DNA from: Candidatus Kaiserbacteria bacterium
Lineage (GTDB): Bacteria > Patescibacteriota > Minisyncoccia > Phycocordibacterales > Phycocordibacteraceae
Reading direction: 5' to 3'
Assembly (NCBI GenBank): GCA_963813065.1
Contig: CAWEXP010000007.1
Coordinates: 1 to 54,883, forward strand
DNA: 54,883 nt
Shown piece after piece: positions 1,234 through 54,333 of the stretch. The first letter of the stretch is position 1; each line of letters begins with the position of its first letter. A program made the translations under genes and the position numbers. The notes under the pieces were generated by a model. That model saw only the letters and a list, made by a program, of their open reading frames with translations, did no database searches and was not told the origin of the DNA.

Positions 1234-2981
1234 TGAAAACTTCCTGGGACCTCTCCGTTTTTTATACAAGTTTGACCGACCCGAAGATTGAAAAGGATCA
1301 GAAGACTGCCGATAGGGTCGTGGCTACTTTTGCGAAAAAATATAGAAAAGACAAAAAACACCTGAAGGATGCGAAAGCACTCGCGAAGGCACTTGAGGAT
1401 TTCGAGAAGCTTATTGAGTTGCCCGATAGTCGTGCCGCCTTCTATGCGGGCTATCGCAAAGAGCTCGACGTCTCTGACAAAGCGGCCGAGGCTCTAGGCG
1501 CCAAGCTCGACGAGCGTGGCACCAAGCGCGGCAATCTCGTTCTCTTCTTCGCGCTCGAGCTCGGGAAAGTGCCGAAGGCGATGCAGAAAAAATTCCTCAC
1601 AGCCGAAATCTTGAAGCCCTATCGCTACTGGCTCAAACAGCTCTTCGAGAGTGCAAAGTACAATCTCTCTGAACCAGAAGAGAAAATATTGTCGCTGAAG
1701 AGTGACGTCTCACACGGCCGCTGGATCCAAGCGACCGAAAATATCTTGCACAAGAAGACGGTTGCACACGAGGGGAAGGAATTGCCTCTGCCCGAAGCGG
1801 AATCGCTCTATGCGAATCTGCCGACCGAGCAACGCCGCGAACTCTATCGCAGTGTGCGCCAGGTCTACGCTGACACGGCTGACATTGGCGAGAGCGAGTT
1901 GAACGCCGTCTACACTGATAAAAAAATAAACGACGAGCTCCGCGGGCTCAAGCATCCGTATGATGCGACCATTCGCGGATATCAGAACGACCCGAAGAGT
2001 ATCCTCGCGTTGGTCGATGCCGTCACGAAGGCGGCGCCCATCGCGCACCGTTTCTATGCCGTAAAAAAGAAACTGCTGAAACTCGACCGCCTGACCTATG
2101 CCGATCGCTCGGCCAAGGTCGGCGAGGTGAAGACGAAAGTGCCCTTCGAGCGCGCGGTCGCTATTGTGCGCGAGGTGTTCACCGACCTCGATCCGCAGTA
2201 TGTAGAAATCTTCGACCGGCTTCTCGACAGCGGCCAAGTCGATGTCTACCCGAAGAAAGGGAAGACCGGTGGCGCCTACTGCTCATCGTCGGTTGGTGTC
2301 CCAACCTTCGTGCTCCTGAATCATCTCAGCGATTTCCATTCGTTGAAGACGCTCGCGCACGAGATGGGTCACGCCATCCACGCCGAGCGGGCCAAGAGTC
2401 AGCGGCCGCTCTACCAGGGCCACCCGATCTCGACCGCCGAGACCGCGAGCACCTTCTTCGAGACGGCAGCGCTCAAGCGACTGATTGCCGAGTTGCCCGC
2501 AGAAGAGCGCGTCGTCGCGCTCCACGACGCTATCCAAGACAACATCGCGACGGTCTTCCGCCAGATTGCATTCTTCCGCTTCGAGCTCGCTCTGCACCAG
2601 GCAGTCCGCGCGGATGGCTACGTGCCGAAGGAGAAAATCGCGGAACTGATGAACAAAGAAATGCAACAATACCTCGGGCCAGCGTTCAAGCTCGAGCCGG
2701 AGGACGGTAACTTCTTCGTCACCATCGGCCACATTCGCCGATTCTTCTACGTTTACTCCTATGCCTATGGCCAGCTCATCAGCTCAGCTCTGCATCGCAA
2801 GCTCGATGCTGATGCGGGGTTCATCAAGAAGGTCGACGGCTTCCTCGCGGCAGGGGAGAGCAAGTCGCCCTACGACATCTTCAAGTCTTGCGGCCTCGAC
2901 ACGCAGAATCCCGCCATCTTCCGCGAAGGTCTCAAAGCAATCGAAGCCAATGTGGCGGAGCTGGAGCGGTTGACAAAGTAA
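1233..2981 (+). CDS. pepF: M3 family oligoendopeptidase F
   Basis: N-terminal WDLS, GKTGGAYC, HEMGH zinc motif, AETAS, FYVYSYAYG. Confidence 0.88.
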   Translation: MKTSWDLSVFYTSLTDPKIEKDQKTADRVVATFAKKYRKDKKHLKDAKALAKALEDFEKLIELPDSRAAFYAGYRKELDVSDKAAEALGAKLDERGTKRGNLVLFFALELGKVPKAMQKKFLTAEILKPYRYWLKQLFESAKYNLSEPEEKILSLKSDVSHGRWIQATENILHKKTVAHEGKELPLPEAESLYANLPTEQRRELYRSVRQVYADTADIGESELNAVYTDKKINDELRGLKHPYDATIRGYQNDPKSILALVDAVTKAAPIAHRFYAVKKKLLKLDRLTYADRSAKVGEVKTKVPFERAVAIVREVFTDLDPQYVEIFDRLLDSGQVDVYPKKGKTGGAYCSSSVGVPTFVLLNHLSDFHSLKTLAHEMGHAIHAERAKSQRPLYQGHPISTAETASTFFETAALKRLIAELPAEERVVALHDAIQDNIATVFRQIAFFRFELALHQAVRADGYVPKEKIAELMNKEMQQYLGPAFKLEPEDGNFFVTIGHIRRFFYVYSYAYGQLISSALHRKLDADAGFIKKVDGFLAAGESKSPYDIFKSCGLDTQNPAIFREGLKAIEANVAELERLTK

Positions 2982-2997
2982 GTAATTGGTGTAACCT
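2970..2997 (+). promoter_or_regulatory. sigma70-like promoter
   Basis: TTGACA-16 nt-TAACCT overlapping the pepF stop. Confidence 0.5.
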
Positions 2998-3070
2998 TCA
3001 CTCAGGTTAGAGGAGCGGCCGTTAACGGCTTGATTGGCAATCTCGCCAATCTGCTGGGCCGATTCGCAGT

Positions 3071-3288: not shown

Positions 3289-3318
3289 ATACCGAGAATG
3301 CGTGGTATGGTTTTGCGT

Positions 3319-5229
3319 ATGACCGTCGCAGAGGTGCGCAAGCGCTACTTAGATTTTTTCGCCAAGCGGGGACACAAAATTATCCCGTCGGCGCCAATCG
3401 TACCCGAGAACGATCCAACGACGCTCTTCACGAGTAGTGGGATGCAACCGTTGGTGCCGTACCTGCTCGGCGCGGAGCATCCCGAGGGTGTGCGGCTCAC
3501 CGATTCTCAACTCTCATTTCGCGCTGAAGATATAGAAGAAGTCGGCGACAATCGCCACACGACCTTCTTCGAAATGTTGGGGAATTGGAGTTTAGGAGAT
3601 TATTTTAAAAAAGAGCAATTGCCTTGGTTCTACGAATTTCTTACTAGCCCGACCGAAGGTTTAGGGCTGAGCGCAGAAAAACTGTTCGTCTCCACTTTCT
3701 CTGGCGACGAAGAGAGCGGGATGTCTGCCGACACTGAATCTAAAGAAATCTGGGAACGCATCGGGATTCCTAAAGAGCGCATCTACTCGTATGGCGCGAA
3801 GAAAAATTGGTGGAGCCGCGCGGGCGTACCGAGCAACATGCCTGCGGGCGAGATTGGCGGGCCGGACTCGGAGGTTTTTTACGATTTTGGTCTCCCGCAT
3901 GACCCCGCGTTTGGCCCCGAGTGCCACCCCAACTGCGATTGCGGCCGCTTCGTCGAGATTGGCAACTCCGTTTTTATGCAGTTCATCAAGCAGGCCGACG
4001 GCACCTTCAAAGAATTGCCGAAGCGCAATGTCGACTTCGGCGGCGGGCTCGAACGCCTCACTGCGGCAACGCGCGGCAACCCCGACATTTTTCTCGTCGA
4101 CGTTTTCGATTCTGCGCGTGCGGTCATTGAACAGCGCTCGGGCATCCAATATGGGGACACGCCGTGTCCGACTTCAGAAGTCGGACACGGCGTGTCCAAC
4201 CTTCGGTCGTTCAGGATAATTCTCGACCATATGCGCGCCGCGAGCTTCATGCTCGCCTCGGGCATCACGCCGGCGAACTCCGAGCAAGGCTACGTGCTCC
4301 GCCGCCTCATCCGTCGTTCCATCCGCGAAGCGGACAAGCTCGGGATTAAAGACGCAGTGCTCGCCGACGTGGCGGAAGGGTACGGCGCTGCATATGCCAC
4401 TGCCTATCCATTTGTTTCCGCGAATCACGACTTCATCCGCGACGAACTCGCGAAAGAGGAGGCGCAGTTCCGAAAAATTCTGAACTCGGGACTTTTTGCG
4501 CTAGAAAACGAAATTAAGAAAATTATCGACATTAAAACTGAGTGGGTTGGGGGCCTAGAAGAGGACGCTCAGGGTAACAACATTGCAACTAGGATGTTGC
4601 CTCGCGATGTTGTGTTCGATTTATATCAGACAAAGGGGATTCCATTTGAGTTAATCAAAGAAATCGCAACCGAGAATAAAGTATTTATCGATGAAAGAGA
4701 TTTTGAGGAACGTAAGTCGCAACATCAAGCCGAGTCCCGTGCCGGCGCAGCGCAAAAGTTCGCGGGAGGATTGGCAGATCATGCGGAGAAGACGATTCAG
4801 TACCACACCGCGCACCACCTATTGCTCAAAGCGTTGCAAATAGTTCTTGGCAAGGATGTCCACCAGCGCGGGAGCAATATCACCAGCGAGCGTCTGCGCA
4901 TCGATTTCTCGTTCTCGCACAAAATGACGCCGGAAGAAATTAAAAAAGTGGAAGACATTGTGAACGAGAAAATTGCCGAGGGAATTCCGGTCGTGCGCAC
5001 CGTGATGAAAAAAGAAGATGCGGAGAAACTCGGTGCCGAGCACGAGTTCGGTGCCTCCTATCCCGAAATGGTCTCGGTGTATTCGGTCGGCCCGCTCGAC
5101 AATGCATTCTCGATAGAATTCTGTGGTGGCCCGCACGTGGCGAACACGAGCGAGCTCGGCCATTTCAAGATTGTGAAGGAAGAAGCGTCATCGGCTGGCG
5201 TTCGACGAATCAAAGCAGTGTTAGAATAA
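3319..5229 (+). CDS. alaS: alanine--tRNA ligase (short form without C-Ala domain)
   Basis: DPTTLFTSSGMQP, HTTFFEMLGNWS, HTAHHLL and EFCGGPHV editing motifs. Start moved to ATG 3319, which follows TGGTATGGT by 7 nt. Confidence 0.96.
   Translation: MTVAEVRKRYLDFFAKRGHKIIPSAPIVPENDPTTLFTSSGMQPLVPYLLGAEHPEGVRLTDSQLSFRAEDIEEVGDNRHTTFFEMLGNWSLGDYFKKEQLPWFYEFLTSPTEGLGLSAEKLFVSTFSGDEESGMSADTESKEIWERIGIPKERIYSYGAKKNWWSRAGVPSNMPAGEIGGPDSEVFYDFGLPHDPAFGPECHPNCDCGRFVEIGNSVFMQFIKQADGTFKELPKRNVDFGGGLERLTAATRGNPDIFLVDVFDSARAVIEQRSGIQYGDTPCPTSEVGHGVSNLRSFRIILDHMRAASFMLASGITPANSEQGYVLRRLIRRSIREADKLGIKDAVLADVAEGYGAAYATAYPFVSANHDFIRDELAKEEAQFRKILNSGLFALENEIKKIIDIKTEWVGGLEEDAQGNNIATRMLPRDVVFDLYQTKGIPFELIKEIATENKVFIDERDFEERKSQHQAESRAGAAQKFAGGLADHAEKTIQYHTAHHLLLKALQIVLGKDVHQRGSNITSERLRIDFSFSHKMTPEEIKKVEDIVNEKIAEGIPVVRTVMKKEDAEKLGAEHEFGASYPEMVSVYSVGPLDNAFSIEFCGGPHVANTSELGHFKIVKEEASSAGVRRIKAVLE
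4155..4197. repeat. 43-bp perfect palindrome (family A) in-frame in alaS
   Basis: GGACACGCCGTGTCCGACTTC-A-GAAGTCGGACACGGCGTGTCC; translates as DTPCPTSEVGHGVS. Confidence 0.95.
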
Positions 5230-14220: not shown

Positions 14221-14766
14221 ATGGATTGGAAAGGCGACGACATAGACGAGGAGAGCATTGTGGAGCCGGAGCCCGAAGAGGGTGGCGATGCTGTCGTAGC
14301 CAAAATAAAGAAGATGAAGGATGAGCTCGCCGAGGTGAAGAAGGAGAAGCAGGACTATCTCGACGGCTGGCAGAGGAGCAAAGCGGACTATGTGAACTTA
14401 CTGAAGCGGACCGAGGGAGATGCGAAAGTGTCAGAGTTGAAAGGAAAAATAAAATCGGTTGAAACCTTGCTGCCCGCGTTTGATGCGCTCGAACGCTCCA
14501 AGGAGCATGGCGAAGTACCCGAAGGGTTCATGGCCATCGCGAAGGAACTTGAGAGCGCCTTCGCCGCGCTCGGGATCGAGGAGGTGGGGAAGGTCGGCGA
14601 AGCATTTGATCCTGCATTCCACGACGCGATGGGGCAGGACGTGGTGGAATCGGCAGAAGAAGATGAGAAAATAACTGCCGTATTAGAAAAAGGATGGAAG
14701 ATTGGCGAGCAGGTGATTCGCCCCGCAAAAGTCAGAGTCGGAATGTTAGGACATCCGATGTCCTAA
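14221..14766 (+). CDS. grpE: nucleotide exchange factor GrpE
   Basis: QRSKADYVN, FDPAFHDAM, KGW...IRPAKVRV. Confidence 0.95.
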   Translation: MDWKGDDIDEESIVEPEPEEGGDAVVAKIKKMKDELAEVKKEKQDYLDGWQRSKADYVNLLKRTEGDAKVSELKGKIKSVETLLPAFDALERSKEHGEVPEGFMAIAKELESAFAALGIEEVGKVGEAFDPAFHDAMGQDVVESAEEDEKITAVLEKGWKIGEQVIRPAKVRVGMLGHPMS

Positions 14767-14789
14767 TTGCACGGGGACATCGGATGTCC
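14749..14789. repeat. family A palindrome pair at the grpE 3' end
   Basis: GGACATCCGATGTCC-11 nt-GGACATCGGATGTCC; the two units are exact reverse complements. Confidence 0.9.
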
Positions 14790-21001: not shown

Positions 21002-22327
21002 ATGACCCCCATTAGAAAGCTCGAGGACTCGCGTTCAAACGGGGCGAGCCTCGCAGAAGAACTGAAGGCGCGCGGGCTGGTAGAGGTGAGCTCGAAGCCC
21101 ATTGAGGAGATACTGGGCACGCCGCGGACGGTGTACCTCGGCGTTGACCCGACCGCGGATTCTATCCAGGCGGGGAATCTCGCGGTCGTGCTCCTGATGA
21201 AGCGCCTCGCCGACGCCCGCCCGAACGACGGTTCAGTCGGGCGGGCAGGGCACAAGCTGATTTTCCTCGTCGGTGGCGGCACCGGCATGATTGGCGACCC
21301 CAAGGAGCGCGGCGAGCGCGCCATGCTTGATGCCAAGGTCGTCGCGAGCAATACGCGCGCCATCACGAAGCAGTTGAAAGGTATTCTCGGCCGCACACCT
21401 TTCAAGATGGTCGACAACGCCGACTGGCTCCTCGCGGAAAAATTGGTGCCCTTCCTGCGCGACGTGGGGAAATATTTCACCGTCAACGATTTGATAAAGC
21501 GCGAACTCATCGCCAAGCGCCTCGCGACGCCCGACGAGAGCATTTCGTACACCGAGTTCACCTACGCGCTTCTGCAAGGCTTCGATTATTTCACTCTGCA
21601 TAAAAAATATGCGTGTGATTTGCAAATTGGCGGCTCCGACCAGTGGACCAACATCCTCTCGGGCGTTGACCTGATCCACAAGCGCACGGGTGACCTCGTG
21701 TACGCGTTCGCGATGCCGCTCGTCACGGATACCGCAGGGAAAAAATTTGGCAAATCAGAGGGCAATGCCGTCTGGCTCGATCCCAAGAAAACCTCGCCGC
21801 TCGCGTTCTATCAGTTCTGGATGAACTTGCCGGATGAGGGCATCGAGAAATATTTGAAGGTCTACACCTTCCTGCCGCTGGTCGAGATTGAAGCGCTGAT
21901 GGAGCTCCACAAGCAGGCGCCGCAGAAACGCCAAGCGCAGGAGACCCTCGCGCGGCTCGTGACCGAGATTGTTCACGGCCCCGCGACGACCGCGCAGGTG
22001 ATCGCCGCAACCGATGCGCTCTATGGCGGCCGTTCGTTTTCGACCCTTTCGAAACTTGAGCTTGATGTCGTTCGTGCCGAAGCACCTTCCATGCAAATAT
22101 CGAGGTTAAACCTCGATACCGGATACTCGCTGGCAGAAGCTCTTGTCGCGGGTGGTCTCGCTACCTCCAAGAGTGACGCACGTCGCCTCATCGAAGGGAA
22201 GGGCATCACGCTCTCCGGCCTGCCGGTCGAAAATCCGGATTTGAAATTATTTGCGCACGACCTGCCCGGCGGCATCGCACTGGTGCGCAAAGGCAAGCAG
22301 GGCGTGCTCGTGCTCATCGCTCGCTAG
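21002..22327 (+). CDS. tyrS: tyrosine--tRNA ligase
   Basis: YLGVDPTADS, QIGGSDQW, KFGKS, C-terminal S4 domain. Confidence 0.97.
   Translation: MTPIRKLEDSRSNGASLAEELKARGLVEVSSKPIEEILGTPRTVYLGVDPTADSIQAGNLAVVLLMKRLADARPNDGSVGRAGHKLIFLVGGGTGMIGDPKERGERAMLDAKVVASNTRAITKQLKGILGRTPFKMVDNADWLLAEKLVPFLRDVGKYFTVNDLIKRELIAKRLATPDESISYTEFTYALLQGFDYFTLHKKYACDLQIGGSDQWTNILSGVDLIHKRTGDLVYAFAMPLVTDTAGKKFGKSEGNAVWLDPKKTSPLAFYQFWMNLPDEGIEKYLKVYTFLPLVEIEALMELHKQAPQKRQAQETLARLVTEIVHGPATTAQVIAATDALYGGRSFSTLSKLELDVVRAEAPSMQISRLNLDTGYSLAEALVAGGLATSKSDARRLIEGKGITLSGLPVENPDLKLFAHDLPGGIALVRKGKQGVLVLIAR
21215..21249 (+). repeat. family C palindromic insertion in tyrS
   Basis: GCCCGCCCGA-12 nt-TCGGGCGGGC-AGG; adds RPNDGSVGRA inside LADAGHK. 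Confidence 0.85.
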
Positions 22328-33406: not shown

Positions 33407-34543
33407 ATGACCATCGTGTTTACGGGGGGTGGGACCGGCGGGCATTTCTATCCGCTGATTGCCATCAGCGAAGCGCTCAAGGACTTGGTCCGCGAAGAGC
33501 GCGTGCTCGAGCCCAAGCTCTATTTCCTCGCGCCGAACTCTTTCGACCCGCGAGCGCTTTTCGACAACAGCATCATCTTCATCCAAATTCCGGCGGGGAA
33601 GATGCGCCGCTATTTTTCTTTCGCGAATATCACCGGCCTCATCACCACGTTCTTCGGCACGCTCTCCGCACTCGTGACGCTCTTTCGCATCTATCCAGAT
33701 GTCGTCATCTCGAAAGGCGGCTATGGGAGCGTACCGACTGTCCTCGCCGCGCGCATTCTGCGCATTCCACTCATCATTCACGAATCAGATGCGAAGCCGG
33801 GTCGCGCGACCCTCATGGCCGCCAGATACGCTTCGAAAATCGCCATTTCCTTCGATTCAACCGCCGCATTTTTTCCGAAAAAGTTCCAGAAGAAAATTGC
33901 ACGCACTGGTATCCCGATTCGCAAAGCGCTCATGCGCGTTGAGGCGGAGGGCGCTCGGCAGTATCTCGGGCTCGAGAAGGATGTCCCGACCGTGCTGATT
34001 CTCGGCGGTTCGCAGGGCTCGGTGCGTATTAACGATGCCATCGTTTCTGCGTTGCCCGACCTCGTCTCCTTTGCAAACGTGATTCATCAGACTGGCGAAA
34101 ATAATTTCAAAGAGGTCAAAGGTGTCGCCGAGGTGACGCTCGCCGGCAATCCGCACGCGGACCGCTATCATCCCTTCGACTACCTTTCTGAAGTCTCGCT
34201 CCAGCGGGCGGCCGGTGCCGCAGACGTGGTCGTCTCGCGTGCAGGGGCGACGTCTATTGCCGAGATTGCGCTCTGGAAGAAGCCTGCGGTATTGATTCCG
34301 ATTCCCGAGGCCGTGAGTCACGATCAGCGCACCAACGCCTACGCCTACGCCGGCACGGGCGCCGCGGTCGTCATCGAGGAGGAGAATCTCACGCCGCACG
34401 TCATCGCCTCCGAGACCAAGCGCATCGCAACGAATCCCGAATTGGCAAAACAAATGGGTGCCGCGGCCGCCGGCTGGACCGACAAGGACGCGGCCCGCGT
34501 GCTCGCCAACGCCGCCCTCACCATCGCGCTTTCCCATGAATAA
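33407..34543 (+). CDS. murG: undecaprenyl-PP-MurNAc-pentapeptide GlcNAc transferase
   Basis: TGGGTGGH, KGGYGS, HESD, GGSQG, SRAGA, DQRTNA. Confidence 0.96.
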   Translation: MTIVFTGGGTGGHFYPLIAISEALKDLVREERVLEPKLYFLAPNSFDPRALFDNSIIFIQIPAGKMRRYFSFANITGLITTFFGTLSALVTLFRIYPDVVISKGGYGSVPTVLAARILRIPLIIHESDAKPGRATLMAARYASKIAISFDSTAAFFPKKFQKKIARTGIPIRKALMRVEAEGARQYLGLEKDVPTVLILGGSQGSVRINDAIVSALPDLVSFANVIHQTGENNFKEVKGVAEVTLAGNPHADRYHPFDYLSEVSLQRAAGAADVVVSRAGATSIAEIALWKKPAVLIPIPEAVSHDQRTNAYAYAGTGAAVVIEEENLTPHVIASETKRIATNPELAKQMGAAAAGWTDKDAARVLANAALTIALSHE

Positions 34544-36008
34544 AAAAGTGGTCACCCGTTTCGCACCGTCGCCGACCGGCTTCATGCATGTCGGAGGTGT
34601 TCGCACCGCGCTCTATTCCTGGCTCTATGCGCGTAAGAATCAGGGCATTTTTATTTTGCGCATCGAGGACACCGACAAGGCGCGCGAAGTCGAAGGCTCC
34701 ATCCCGCACATCATTGAATCCTTGCGTTGGCTCGGCATCGAATGGGATGAGGGCGTCGACAAGGGTGGCCCACGTGCGCCCTATCTTCAATCAGAACGGC
34801 TTGAATTATATAGAACATACGCGCAGAAATTACTCGACGCCGGACACGCGTATCCCGATCCCTATTCTGAAGAAGAGCTCGAGGCTCTGCGAAAGAAAGC
34901 CGAGGATGAGCATCGCGCATTTCTCTTCCGCGATCATAGGCCGAGCGCGGTGGGCCAGTGGGATGGGCAATCGCCGCTCCGCTTCCGCACGCCGGTCCTG
35001 AAGCGCTATGCCTGGCAGGACGCCGTTCGTGGCGAACTCTCCGCGGGAGAAGAGGCCCTCGACGATTTCATATTGATGAAAGGCGATGGGTATCCGACCT
35101 ACAACTTCGCACACATCGTCGACGACATCGAGATGCAGGTCACTCACGTCATGCGCGGCGAAGAATTTATTTCGTCGACCCCGAAGTTTCTTTCACTCTA
35201 CGAAGCACTCGGTGTCGAGCCGCCCATCTTTGTAACGCTCCCCGTCATCCTCGGACCAGATGGCAAAAAGAAATTGAGCAAACGCGATGGTGCGAAAGAT
35301 CTCCTCGATTATCGTGCTGATGGGTACATGCCCGAGGCGCTGATGAACTTCCTCGCGCTCCTCGGCTGGAATCCAGGTACTGAGCAGGAATTCTTCTCGC
35401 CCCAGGAACTCATCGAAACGTTTACGCTCGAACGAATCCAAAAGTCCGGCGCGCACTTCGACGAGGCGAAATTACTCTCCTTCAACCAGCATTGGATGCG
35501 CACACTCTCGGATGAGAAATTCGCGGAATGTTTGGACATCGAATGTCCAACATCTGATGTTGGACATTCGATGTCCCTAAATTCAGCAATGCTTTTTAAA
35601 GCCATTCCGCTGATCAAAGAGCGCGCACGCACCTTTGCCGAGGCCCGAACAATGCTCCTAGGCGAGCTCGCCTGCCTCTTTTCTGCCCCTACCCTCGACT
35701 CAGCCATCCTGGTCGCCAAGGAGCAAAAAGACCGCCCTGGAGCCACAAAATCGCTCCTCGAGAGCCTCCGAGAGCCCTTGGGAGCCTTGCCAGCGGGCAT
35801 CTCTGCCGATGCGGTTAAACAGGCCCTCATGCCCCTCGCCGACGCCGAGGAGGCGCGGGGCAAGGGCGGCCGCGGTGCGCTCCTCTGGCCACTCCGCTAT
35901 GCGCTCTCGGGGCGAGAGAAATCGCCTGACCCTTTCACCCTTATTGCACTCCTTGGTAGGGAAGAGTCAGTCGCCCGCGTACAAAAAGCAATTGCTATAC
36001 TGGGTTGA
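34536..36008 (+). CDS. gltX: glutamate--tRNA ligase
   Basis: TRFAPSPTG.MHVG, LRIEDTD, KLSKR. Confidence 0.97.
   Translation: MNKKVVTRFAPSPTGFMHVGGVRTALYSWLYARKNQGIFILRIEDTDKAREVEGSIPHIIESLRWLGIEWDEGVDKGGPRAPYLQSERLELYRTYAQKLLDAGHAYPDPYSEEELEALRKKAEDEHRAFLFRDHRPSAVGQWDGQSPLRFRTPVLKRYAWQDAVRGELSAGEEALDDFILMKGDGYPTYNFAHIVDDIEMQVTHVMRGEEFISSTPKFLSLYEALGVEPPIFVTLPVILGPDGKKKLSKRDGAKDLLDYRADGYMPEALMNFLALLGWNPGTEQEFFSPQELIETFTLERIQKSGAHFDEAKLLSFNQHWMRTLSDEKFAECLDIECPTSDVGHSMSLNSAMLFKAIPLIKERARTFAEARTMLLGELACLFSAPTLDSAILVAKEQKDRPGATKSLLESLREPLGALPAGISADAVKQALMPLADAEEARGKGGRGALLWPLRYALSGREKSPDPFTLIALLGREESVARVQKAIAILG
35534..35576. repeat. 43-bp perfect palindrome (family A) in-frame in gltX
   Basis: GGACATCGAATGTCCAACATC-T-GATGTTGGACATTCGATGTCC; translates as DIECPTSDVGHSMS. 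Confidence 0.95.
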
Positions 36009-49134: not shown

Positions 49135-50387
49135 ACCGCGACACCACAAGCGGATTACTCCGTTTTTTCTGGGCCTTCTGGCTCTTCCTCGCGTTCTACA
49201 AGTTCGCGGCGGCACTCCACTATTCCCTCCTCTCGCCACTCGGCGAGCGCCTTCTGCCGCTCTGGATTGTCGGCCTGCTCATTGGCGGCGAATCATTCTT
49301 CCAGATGCTCTTCGACGTGCCTGCGGGCTATCTCGTCGACCGTTTTGGCCGGCGACGAATGCTCGCAGTGGGTTGGATTTCGTTCGTCATCTCGGCACTG
49401 CTCCTGATGCAATTCTCGCTCGTGCACTATGTCCTCAGTATCGCGTTCTCAGTCGTCGGCTGGCTCTTCTTCGCACCGGGGGCCAACGCGTATGTGCTTT
49501 CCTATGCAAAAAAAGAAACGAGCGGCCGCTTCATCGCACTGCGCGACACTTTTTATTCTGTCGGCGTGGTGCTTGCGAGCATTTCGCTTCCCTTCGTGCT
49601 TCTCTATGCGCCGTTTATCATGGGAGCGATTCTGCTCGTGCTCCTCGCCTTCGCCATCGTTGCGCTCTCTGCAAGTCCGGTCGATGCGCCGGTGGTGCAC
49701 GGCCAGTCCATCCTCCCCGCCGAGCCCTACCACATCCGCCGAACCGCGATTATAAAAACATTCCGCGCGCTCAAGCGGCTTAATCCGGCCAGTGGCACAC
49801 TCGCCGCCTACTCCTTCGCTGGTTCTATTTTCTATGGTGCAATCTGGTTCGTGGTGCCACTCGCTATCGTGAGCCAGCCGGAGAACGGAAGCTTCCTGGG
49901 TGTTGGTCTCGCTATCTTCGACATTTCTGTTGTTGTCTTGGGCGTCGCGCTCGGGACGCTCGTCGATCGCGGCAATAAACGCTTGCTCGTCTTCTGGGGT
50001 CTCCTGCTCTTCGCGCTCATGGGCCTGATACTGGGCGCAACACTGGGGCCGCTCTTCCTCCTCTTCGGCTTCCTCGCGACGGCGGGTGATGAGACCGCCG
50101 GTCTCTCGCTCTGGAGCTGGCTCCACTCGCTCGATAAAGAACATGCGCACGATGGCGCCATTGCGGGCGTTATCTCCTTCTCTGAGGACTTCGGGTACGC
50201 TATCGGCCCGGTCATCGCCGGATTCGCTTTCGTTGCCTTCGGCGCCGGTTGGGCCATCGCTATCTCGGCCATCCCGCTCTGCGTCGCCTGGGTGATGTAC
50301 ACCATCTATATCCGCCCCATCGCCACCTTCCCCACTTCTCTGCTCGGCATCCCGGCAATGCCCCGGCGTCGTCGCCACAAATCATGA
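49131..50387 (+). CDS. MFS transporter
   Basis: About 12 TM helices; motif A GYLVDRFGRR. Confidence 0.88.
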   Translation: MNRDTTSGLLRFFWAFWLFLAFYKFAAALHYSLLSPLGERLLPLWIVGLLIGGESFFQMLFDVPAGYLVDRFGRRRMLAVGWISFVISALLLMQFSLVHYVLSIAFSVVGWLFFAPGANAYVLSYAKKETSGRFIALRDTFYSVGVVLASISLPFVLLYAPFIMGAILLVLLAFAIVALSASPVDAPVVHGQSILPAEPYHIRRTAIIKTFRALKRLNPASGTLAAYSFAGSIFYGAIWFVVPLAIVSQPENGSFLGVGLAIFDISVVVLGVALGTLVDRGNKRLLVFWGLLLFALMGLILGATLGPLFLLFGFLATAGDETAGLSLWSWLHSLDKEHAHDGAIAGVISFSEDFGYAIGPVIAGFAFVAFGAGWAIAISAIPLCVAWVMYTIYIRPIATFPTSLLGIPAMPRRRRHKS

Positions 50388-51025
50388 GTGACCGCATCGA
50401 AGAACTCGCGAGTGCCTTCGCCCGTCTGCCCGGTATCGGACCGCGTCAGGGTAAACGCTTCGTCTATTATCTCCTCGCGACGGGCGCAAGCGAACGTTCG
50501 AAACTCGCCGAACTCATTTCTGCACTGGGAAAAGAAGTGCGCCAGTGCCCGGACTGTTTACGATTCTTCAACGGCTCTTCCGCACTCGTCTGCGGGTATT
50601 GCACCGACAAAACGCGCGACGATGCACAGCTCATGCTCGTCGAGAAGGATCAGGACCTCGCCGCCATTGAACGCGCAGGCACCTATCGCGGTCGCTACTT
50701 TGTGCTCGGCGGCGTTTTGACGCTCTCGGGTAAAGGTGCCATCCGTGAAAAAGAATTGGTACGGCGCGTGGAAAAAGGTTTGAAGGCTAAAACCGCCGCA
50801 GGCGGTTCGCCCGGCGCACAAAGTGCGCTTAGGGAAGTTGTGCTCGCGCTCTCGGCGACGAGCGAGGGCGAACACACCGCCGACCACGTCCGCGAACTCC
50901 TCGCCCCCTTCCGCGACCACTTGAAACTCTCCGCGCTTGGCCGCGGCCTCGCTACCGGAAGCGAGCTCGAATACTCCGACGCCGAGACCCTCCGCGCGGC
51001 GCTTAGCAATCGCAAAGAGGCATAA
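50384..51025 (+). CDS. recR: recombination mediator RecR
   Basis: LPGIGPR, CxxC...CxxC zinc finger, YFVLGG, Toprim EGEHTA, LEYSD. Confidence 0.95.
   Translation: MSDRIEELASAFARLPGIGPRQGKRFVYYLLATGASERSKLAELISALGKEVRQCPDCLRFFNGSSALVCGYCTDKTRDDAQLMLVEKDQDLAAIERAGTYRGRYFVLGGVLTLSGKGAIREKELVRRVEKGLKAKTAAGGSPGAQSALREVVLALSATSEGEHTADHVRELLAPFRDHLKLSALGRGLATGSELEYSDAETLRAALSNRKEA
50787..50817 (+). repeat. family B hairpin element in recR
   Basis: CTAAAACCGCC-GCA-GGCGGTTCGCCCGGCGC; translates as KTAAGGSPGA. Confidence 0.8.
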
Positions 51026-53846: not shown

Positions 53847-53858
53847 CTGATTTTAAGT

Positions 53859-53877
53859 TAGGACATCGAATGTCCTA
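53859..53877. repeat. solo family A unit
   Basis: TA-GGACATCGAATGTCC-TA; the 15-mer is identical to the first unit in gltX. Confidence 0.85.
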
Positions 53878-54333
53878 GTTTGCATTCACCCTATCCTTCG
53901 GAGTAGACCACGGCGGCAAGATGACATCGAGAAAAGCAATGGTCATGGCCACCACGTATCCTAATGTGATGAGGGCGTAGGGCCAGAGCTCTGCTACCGA
54001 ACCAGCGGTCGCTGGACTGCCCTGTCGGAGCCAACTCGCAATCAGGCCAATGCCGATGGAGGCCGCACATAGGACCAATGCGCCAATCGAGGTCTCTCGC
54101 CACGGACCGTGGAAACGAACCATAGACAGGAAGCTGGCCACGCTCACATACAACGCCAGCATCCCAATGAACCACGGAGCGAACGAAAGGTAGTCGCCGA
54201 GTGTCCAAGGCAACATGTCCGCAGTGGGCGGAATTGGCTCGAGTTGCCAGAGACGAAACAAACCATACTGAGCACTAGCGACGCCGGCGAATCCAACGAT
54301 ACCGAGTACACAACGAATTCTACCAATGATCAT
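53875..54333 (-). CDS. hypothetical membrane protein (about 4 TM)
   Basis: GGAGG RBS, hydrophobic segments. Confidence 0.7.
   Translation of the reverse strand: MIIGRIRCVLGIVGFAGVASAQYGLFRLWQLEPIPPTADMLPWTLGDYLSFAPWFIGMLALYVSVASFLSMVRFHGPWRETSIGALVLCAASIGIGLIASWLRQGSPATAGSVAELWPYALITLGYVVAMTIAFLDVILPPWSTPKDRVNAN

Follow-up and report, generated by a model that had tools for sequence, protein, structure and literature searches.

Why does the tyrosyl-tRNA synthetase gene (tyrS) of a Candidatus Kaiserbacteria bacterium contain ten codons that related genes lack, and why do these codons form a palindrome? The gene lies in a stretch of 54,883 nt (contig CAWEXP010000007.1 of assembly GCA_963813065.1), which was analysed as a whole and is hereafter called the window. 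A first-pass annotation, made from the letters of the window alone, had described a clean 30-nt palindromic insertion in the catalytic domain of the encoded enzyme. We consider it highly probable that this insert represents one translated member of a dispersed family of hairpin repeats, a judgment that covers the identity of the insert and not the manner in which such copies move. The features of the locus are as follows.

21002..22327, forward strand: tyrS coding sequence, host of the insert; an open reading frame (ORF) of 441 amino acids (aa) plus stop, supported by Pfam, solved-chain, and model matches
21215..21246, no strand assigned: perfect 32-nt hairpin (10-bp arms, 12-nt loop) holding the 30-nt insertion, recognized by sequence and folding; the exact pattern is unique in the genome
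21215..21224, forward strand: left arm of the hairpin, perfect complement of the right arm
21237..21246, forward strand: right arm of the hairpin, perfect complement of the left arm
21216..21245, forward strand: 30-nt core of the element in its short form, delimited by an nhmmer profile and encoding residues 72/73-81/82 (ARPNDGSVGR / RPNDGSVGRA)

The identity of the host gene was established by homology and structural prediction. A Pfam search of the product returned PF00579 at E 2.1e-68 together with PF22421, the C-terminal domain of tyrosyl-tRNA synthetase (TyrRS), and comparison with solved TyrRS chains gave matches of up to E 2.3e-85 (2jan_A). Close homologs of the product are annotated as tyrosine--tRNA ligase and come from Patescibacteria-type bacteria. 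The AlphaFold2 model, built from a 120-sequence alignment, had a mean predicted local distance difference test (pLDDT) score of 84.1 and a predicted template modeling (TM) score of 0.81, and it resembled solved TyrRS structures, with TM scores of 0.78/0.84 for 2jan_C and of up to 0.88 on the target for catalytic-domain entries. With both the class I catalytic domain and the overall fold recovered, the predicted product of 21002..22327 is a bacterial TyrRS. HIGH and KMSKS are the names of the signature motifs of class I synthetases. The HIGH position reads QAGN in this protein (aa 56-59; window 21167-21178), and the 120 best relatives have QxGN (67), HxGH (51), or HVGS (2) there; the GDP motif (aa 98-100) and the KMSKS-type motif, KFGKS (aa 248-252), are undisturbed. 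As a separate observation, the TyrRS query found only one further match in its own genome, a 30%-identical gene on contig C8. In tblastn searches, the TyrRSs of other families of the same order (L027-L031) were 28-31% identical to that of the window, against 48% for genome G025 and 55-74% for congeners, and the order therefore contains two types of TyrRS.

Comparison with relatives showed the ten residues to be an addition. In an alignment of tyrS from 29 relatives (23 from the same genus and 6 from elsewhere in the order), all 29 lacked the segment and read L-x-x|A-G-H/N-K across the site, and deletion of the 30 nt in silico restored LAD|AGHK as in these relatives. The segment was also missing in 118 of the 120 best matches, query included, among 5.8 billion clustered proteins, and alignment of the solved TyrRS chains left ten positions empty at this site. 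The ten residues are not a broadly conserved part of TyrRS, the case in which the first-pass annotation would have given up the insertion, and its description of a precise, in-frame, lineage-specific insertion of palindromic origin is upheld. The sole other carrier among the 120 was P0002, a 90%-identical protein from a separate assembly that reads RPNDGSVGGA at the same site. In a tree built without the insert columns, the window TyrRS (P0001) and P0002 were sisters with support of 0.987, and the insert-free P0003 branched next (0.997). A single gain, on the stem shared by this organism and P0002, explains this topology, in which an insert-free sequence lies immediately outside the pair. Because P0002 carries the insert and because a 151-nt contig from sequencing run X2, which may or may not derive from the source sample, spans 21098-21248 with zero differences, the insertion is not an assembly artefact. 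Other runs yielded only fragments less than 90% alike, from other organisms.

The insert coincides with a hairpin whose letters at 21215-21246 are GCCCGCCCGAACGACGGTTCAGTCGGGCGGGC, with the loop at 21225-21236. Since the flank before the insert and the insert itself both end in GC, the junction is ambiguous within 2 nt: the boundaries 21215-21244, 21216-21245, and 21217-21246 are equally possible, and the two flank-derived bases of the 32-nt hairpin are either its first two or its last two. The 2-nt GC duplication suggested by the first-pass annotation reduces to this boundary ambiguity, and other copies of the element have no constant flanking duplication. As single-stranded DNA, the 32-mer has a folding energy of -13.7 kcal/mol (z -3.76), a stability that no sequence among 200 shuffles reached; in a 66-nt RNA context, the hairpin had z -2.25, and 6 of 200 shuffles were equally good. 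The 10-nt arm word is not enriched in the window, which has 56% G+C: eight matches with at most one mismatch were found against 9.67 expected. In its exact form, the hairpin is confined to this one site of the 814-kb genome. What is unusual is the coincidence of a hairpin with an indel, and not the arm word.

A search with the insert by blastn-short returned no long donor from the organism's own genome, only matches of 11-14 nt, and a profile search was therefore needed to find a related copy. A profile for nhmmer, built on 56 distinct copies that all came from other genomes, matched the genome at two places. One was tyrS itself (21216-21245; 30.1 bits, E 3.3e-7), and the other was a 36-nt copy at C6:61980-62015 (25.7 bits, E 8.2e-6) in a gene downstream of infB. 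This second copy starts with CCTGCCCG and corresponds to a 12-aa gap relative to the ortholog in the congener genome G162. We call its host rbfA-like because the match to Pfam RBFA (E 9.5e-6, 26.3 bits) falls below the curated cut-off of 34.7. The genome-wide search proposed in the first-pass annotation was in this way productive, both in the organism's own genome and, with many copies, in others.

Related genomes were searched with arm patterns. An 8+8-nt arm pattern was present in 24 of 151 genus genomes, against 3 of 151 for a reversed-pattern control, and further arm-pattern searches gave 30 versus 7 of 222 genomes and 6 versus 1 of 259. Most of the 8+8-nt matches look like terminators, being preceded by A-rich and followed by T-rich sequence. 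Genome G162 had three copies within long ORFs with the same 9-11-nt arms, and a degenerate-codon pattern for the insert peptide located a fourth, in its tgt gene, with the letters GCTCGCCCGAACGACTGTTCAGTCGGGCGGGC. The copies in related genomes are listed below, with genes named by Pfam and gaps determined by alignment to the orthologs of the present genome (G000).

G162 secD: 36 nt, 12-aa gap
G162 infB: 36 nt, 11+1-aa gap
G162 uvrD, C-terminal tail: 36 nt, outside the aligned part
G162 tgt (G162:C7:29359): hairpin of 32 nt, of which 30 agree with the window copy, 10-aa gap
G019 recR: 27 nt, 9-aa gap relative to window 50384-51022
G234 DUF1801: 30 nt, from the pattern search, Pfam name
G127 DEAD-box helicase: 27 nt, from the pattern search, Pfam name
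G254 (different genus) P-type ATPase: 36 nt, from the pattern search, Pfam name

The elements in tyrS and in G162 tgt are 94% identical, while the Tgt proteins of the two genomes are 73% identical and the other compared G000-G162 orthologs 67-71%. The window recR (50384-51022) represents the empty site for the 27-nt copy of G019; it has a 12-aa segment of its own, further upstream, that is missing in G019. Two candidates were rejected as copies: L130 (G015), which shares the arm pattern but aligns to its ortholog without a gap, and a match in G224 that looks unrelated.

From these copies, the family can be described as GC-rich hairpin repeats of 27-38 nt, with a canonical form of 36 nt and short forms of 29-30 nt. 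Their ends do not vary, following the pattern CCCGCCCGA...TCGGGCGGG, and enclose a conserved inner stem, a variable loop of 3-4 nt, and a one-sided bulge of 4 nt; in the profile, variation is confined to the 3-4 loop bases. Because the bulge is on one side only, the two strands of the element differ in shape. The canonical form is exemplified by CCCGCCCGAACGACTGAAGTCGTTCAGTCGGGCGGG (L200:910-945), with an outer stem of 9 bp, an inner stem of 5 bp, and a folding energy of -15.3 kcal/mol (z -6.2). The short forms, to which the tyrS insert belongs, lack part of the inner stem.

To define the distribution of the family, we searched the GTDB collection, with one genome per species, using a query made of the arms and five inner bases. 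At least 120 loci were found, of which 80 were listed, and 82 copies were read in these 80 loci. By record title, the listed loci comprised 38 of Patescibacteria type, 32 of Bacteroidota type (isolates included), 3 Ignavibacteria, 1 Planctomycetota, 1 Eubacteriales, and 5 titled only 'bacterium'; the Patescibacteria-type titles among them included Nomura-, Uhr-, Yanofsky-, Kaiser-, Taylor-, and Peregrini- names, Saccharibacteria, and others. All 82 copies among the listed loci started with CCCGCCC and ended with GGGCGGG, their flanks were not conserved, and the host loci ranged from 34 to 59% G+C. In five genomes, the number of copies was 11, 8, 28, 2, and 2, and the reversed control gave 0. 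A 30-mer identical to the window copy was found in a single-cell genome (L246), and the same sequence was present on four metagenome contigs (L180, L184, L188, and L192) at loci other than tyrS. A metagenome scan with the insert codons returned 26 stretches, none of them tyrS; four held the exact element elsewhere and one held it with one change. Viral contigs of IMG/VR contained only 5 matching stretches. Element copies, as recognized by these patterns, are shown to lie at unrelated loci in this genome, its congeners, many other Patescibacteria, and Bacteroidota, as expected from the mobile nature that the first-pass annotation had guessed for the insert. Chance sharing of the GC-rich arms would be an unlikely explanation, since the agreement extends to the loops and there are identical 30-mers.

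Some copies had distinctive surroundings. In a Chitinophagaceae genome, a composite repeat of approximately 110-130 nt lies between genes, and the element is its middle hairpin. At four loci (L207, L253, L274, and L247), copies directly follow 5' fragments of tRNAs consisting of the acceptor and D arm. An insertion into the tRNA D-loop was considered for these copies and rejected: the flanks are 5' fragments only, and no whole tRNA appears after removal of the element. An Rfam scan of eight element loci at gathering thresholds recovered only the neighbouring tRNAs and no family for the element.

Next, we focused on how copies sit in coding sequences. Among the matches listed, the length was divisible by three in 50 of 82 copies, and a reading frame that stays open for 40 codons or more to either side was found in 17 of these 50 against 5 of the 32 others. 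We then searched against Pfam (E <=1e-5) every ORF of 90 aa or longer that extends at least 60 nt beyond a copy on each side, 27 in all. A Pfam family was present in 17 of the 21 ORFs spanning 30-, 33-, or 36-nt copies and in none of the 6 spanning 29- or 35-nt copies. The 17 supported hosts were Dus (twice), Wzy_C, SurA/PPIase, SecA, PheRS alpha, PheRS beta, Pif1, aldehyde dehydrogenase, an aminoacyl-tRNA synthetase OB-fold protein, PolA, TPR/Wzy, Mfd, PurA, PRTase, UPF0102, and EF-P. All but one came from Patescibacteria records; the Bacteroidota copies were nearly all intergenic. Five of the six possible strand/phase combinations were used in these hosts, yielding differing peptides rich in Pro, Arg, Gly, and Ser. 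In the phase used in tyrS, the common 36-nt loop word would give a stop, and the copies read in that phase carry other loops. These predicted frames show the multiple-of-three copies of Patescibacteria to sit in frame within housekeeping genes. The length, frame, and Pfam statistics therefore fit coding copies that would be plainly translated and selected for open frames, and disfavour splicing or bypass.

The structural model bears on the consequences for TyrRS. It shows a helix (57-71) after the HIGH position, a coil (72-84), and a strand (85-90), with pLDDT below 50 at residues 77-80, so that modeling of the RPNDGSVGRA segment returns the loop that the first-pass annotation had envisaged. 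In a Rossmann fold, the helix-to-strand turn faces away from the strand ends that bind substrate. Because of this placement, a flexible loop of ten residues at the turn should be tolerated, as far as the model can indicate. We propose that the element arrived in tyrS as inserted DNA, and that the copy would simply be transcribed and translated into a flexible 10-residue loop that the enzyme tolerates. The insert would then be a selfish or neutral passenger and not a new functional part of TyrRS, for which it is most likely harmless.

Several known systems resemble the element, and we compared it with each. Rickettsia palindromic elements (RPEs) are, in the passages that PMC10969869 devotes to them, translated in-frame palindromic repeats of approximately 150 bp. 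They are dispersed, lie in frame in unrelated housekeeping genes, and are thought to be tolerated at the protein surface, according to the relevant text of PMC10969869 and PMC3733652. The present element shares the in-frame palindrome in unrelated genes but not the length of approximately 100-150 bp: with 27-38 nt, it is about a fifth as long as the RPEs, which PMC10969869, in the same passages, treats as a Rickettsia feature. It is moreover rich in GC, varies little from phylum to phylum, and has few copies per genome; the separation from RPEs is by size and host and not by sequence.

Intragenic repetitive extragenic palindromes (REPs) of the GTAG/CGTC type were described in several species by Di Nocera et al. 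(2013). The main text of that paper (PMC3733652) presents them as stem-loops of 20-40 nt between and inside genes, often genes of replication and repair, and gives the CGTC REPs stems of 8-9 bp and no dedicated transposase. The element agrees with REPs in being a dispersed imperfect palindrome of 20-40 nt, at 1-28 copies per genome. It differs in the absence of the terminal tetranucleotide GTAG or CGTC and of a flanking or co-occurring gene for a REP-associated tyrosine transposase (RAYT, a Y1 enzyme), in its bulged two-step stem, and in being common to Patescibacteria and Bacteroidota. It may overlap with the supplementary list of intragenic REPs in PMC3733652, the distinction being drawn from the main text of that paper.

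With REPIN/RAYT systems, the element has in common a short hairpin with conserved stems and a free loop, possibly handled as single-stranded DNA, but it has no flanking RAYT gene or link to PF01797 (Y1 transposase) and occurs as single units rather than inverted doublets. [quoted passage not shown] Mitochondrial GC clusters and double-hairpin elements are small organellar palindromes that spread in compact genomes. These and the coding palindromes are similarly GC-rich or perfect and can sit in frame in protein genes, but they are organellar systems with no known sequence relation to the element, and we compare them by general description. The coding palindromes include those of Nematomorpha (PMC6649704). 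By analogy, the element can be said to work like RPEs and intragenic REPs, while being smaller, untagged, distributed across phyla, and without a linked transposase.

How the hairpin moves is a separate question. Since the element has no link to Y1 genes or to its neighbours, a mover acting in trans is held most likely; we give about an even chance to non-autonomous transposition by the product of a gene located elsewhere. Considerably less likely appears a copying event templated by another copy in the course of repair or replication, by template switching or gene conversion with microhomology, and movement by a RAYT/IS200-type Y1 enzyme somewhat less likely still. By analogy with REP/RAYT and IS200/IS605 systems, the shape of the element points to recognition as a folded single strand, because of its conserved stems, free loop, one-sided bulge, and lack of a target duplication.

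Several observations weigh against this interpretation as a whole. The search for a mobilising gene was negative: G162, G275, and G277, which have 4, 11, and 28 copies, respectively, lack PF01797, none of 12 Y1 loci contained the element, and the 93 ORFs around 34 copies were ordinary, with none recurring and no transposase among them, although one phage integrase and one NUMOD4 endonuclease were present. No target duplication or motif was seen in tyrS, recR, 11 flanks of G275, or the copies among the matches listed. The organism's own genome holds two copies only, and at least 6 of 259 family genomes carry the element, a lower bound because the patterns require intact arms. Translation is deduced from reading frames, and the loop from the structural model.

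Two alternatives retain a small share of probability. The insert might have been kept for a function, either as a surface loop of TyrRS that contacts a partner or tRNA or as a regulatory hairpin in mRNA or DNA, which we regard as unlikely. It has survived approximately 10% protein divergence between P0001 and P0002, the window hairpin is still perfect, and the stems of the element are conserved across phyla. However, the element is read in five strand/phase combinations in unrelated proteins, and the peptide is therefore a by-product; moreover, the loop is modelled as disordered, and 118 of 120 relatives manage without the insert. The Arg-to-Gly replacement in the P0002 insert, to judge from the protein, would break one stem pair if it arose by a single-base change and would leave the other arm unmatched.

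It is equally improbable that the insert belongs to the REP/REPIN families of its own genome and was moved by RAYT-like Y1 transposases. This genome has eight matches to PF01797, and its own REP-type hairpins flank Y1 genes and also sit in frame in genes. Yet the element bears no sequence similarity to these 15-nt hairpins, flanks no Y1 gene, is abundant in genomes that lack PF01797, and has no GTAG or CGTC end tag of the kind set out in the main text of PMC3733652.

Two further explanations are very improbable. A de novo local mutation, by template switching or hairpin-primed synthesis, might have produced the palindrome with no repeat family involved, as the single-copy state of the exact hairpin and the failure of blastn-short to find a long donor in the genome (best partial matches, 12-14 nt) would allow; however, other genomes contain this 30-32-nt sequence, with its loop, at different loci, and a 36-nt relative lies in the organism's own rbfA-like gene. 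The element might also be a tiny intervening sequence, removed from RNA or skipped by the ribosome, given the strength of the hairpin and the tRNA-like sequence beside some copies. Against this, the copies in Pfam-supported ORFs are always of 30, 33, or 36 nt and stop-free (17/17), no ORF spanning a 29- or 35-nt form has Pfam support (0/6), and the tRNA-like flanks do not yield a tRNA when the element is deleted. An assembly or sequencing artefact is scarcely credible: chimeric reads can yield palindromes and the window comes from a 10-contig draft, but the insert is in frame, recurs with one substitution in the separate assembly of P0002, is spanned exactly by the X2 contig, and belongs to a family present in complete isolate genomes.

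If the insert did arise from a dispersed hairpin repeat and is translated, the interest of the locus lies in the element family that it reveals and not in TyrRS itself. A repeat of approximately 30 nt colonises the coding sequence of essential genes in tiny, streamlined genomes, and a near letter-identical repeat is common to Patescibacteria and free-living Bacteroidota. The element would explain some lineage-specific loops in Patescibacteria proteins, and such indels would be homoplastic; being easily traced, it could mark DNA exchange between phyla. Its sequence strings did not occur in any of 8.4 million published papers and preprints, and word searches of the literature found nothing on such elements in Patescibacteria, supplementary files aside in both cases. 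Tentatively, and with less confidence than its alternatives together, we raise the possibility that mobile DNA includes an ultra-small class not described before, a bulged hairpin of 27-38 nt that spreads between phyla without a linked transposase and repeatedly writes loops of 9-12 residues into essential proteins of Patescibacteria. If so, the phyla concerned would include Bacteroidota, Ignavibacteria, and many classes of Patescibacteria, and the loops would lie in aminoacyl-tRNA synthetases, SecA, PolA, IF-2, EF-P, and Mfd. Such an element would be smaller than any transposable unit known and would steadily supply bacteria of reduced genome size with new protein loops.

The window contains other coding palindromes, and the first-pass annotation, in comparing the tyrS insert with 'any coding copy in the window', had implied one family. 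This does not hold: on sequence grounds, the insert is of a separate GC-rich family, and the palindromes at 4155-4197, 35523-35587, and 22098-22118 belong to unrelated families of 15-nt REP-type hairpins. Hairpins of this second class have a 6-bp stem (GGACAC, GGACAT, GGACTT, GGAAGT, CGAGGT, or CAAGGT) and a 3-nt loop, and they often form inverted doublets of 40-50 nt. Approximately half of the copies are in frame within ORFs of at least 150 aa. The examples of this class and the Y1 genes are as follows.

Window 4155-4197: 15-nt-class palindrome in the AlaRS ORF 3298-5229
Window 35523-35587: 15-nt-class palindrome in the GluRS ORF 34458-36008
Window 14749-14789 and window 53848-53888: 15-nt-class palindromes
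G000:C10:112131-112355 (L157), C5:2849-3070, and C6:112995-113216: examples of Y1 (PF01797) genes

At the GluRS site, congeners hold other variants, half units, or nothing. Seven of the eight PF01797 matches in the 814-kb genome are above the cut-off, and the Y1 gene at L157 has a GGACAC-type hairpin on both sides, like a REP-RAYT unit. The palindrome at window 22098-22118 is a second perfect palindrome in tyrS, of REP type, and comprises the codons for ISRLNLD. Among 22 other relatives, five (L003, L006, L012, L015, and L016) have different perfect hairpins at these codons without a change in length, and the rest have none; REP units may have replaced one another, or the variants may have arisen by descent with compensatory change.

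Finally, a conserved hairpin of 39 nt with similar CCCGCCCG ends was found at L135:1501-1539 and 2971-3009 (G183) and at G147:C2:29539 and 31300. These hairpins are paired in inverted orientation at a spacing of 1.4-1.8 kb, each pair being part of longer inverted flanks that enclose an ORF of 350 aa rich in Glu and Lys, and the pair together with this ORF may be an invertible or mobile unit.

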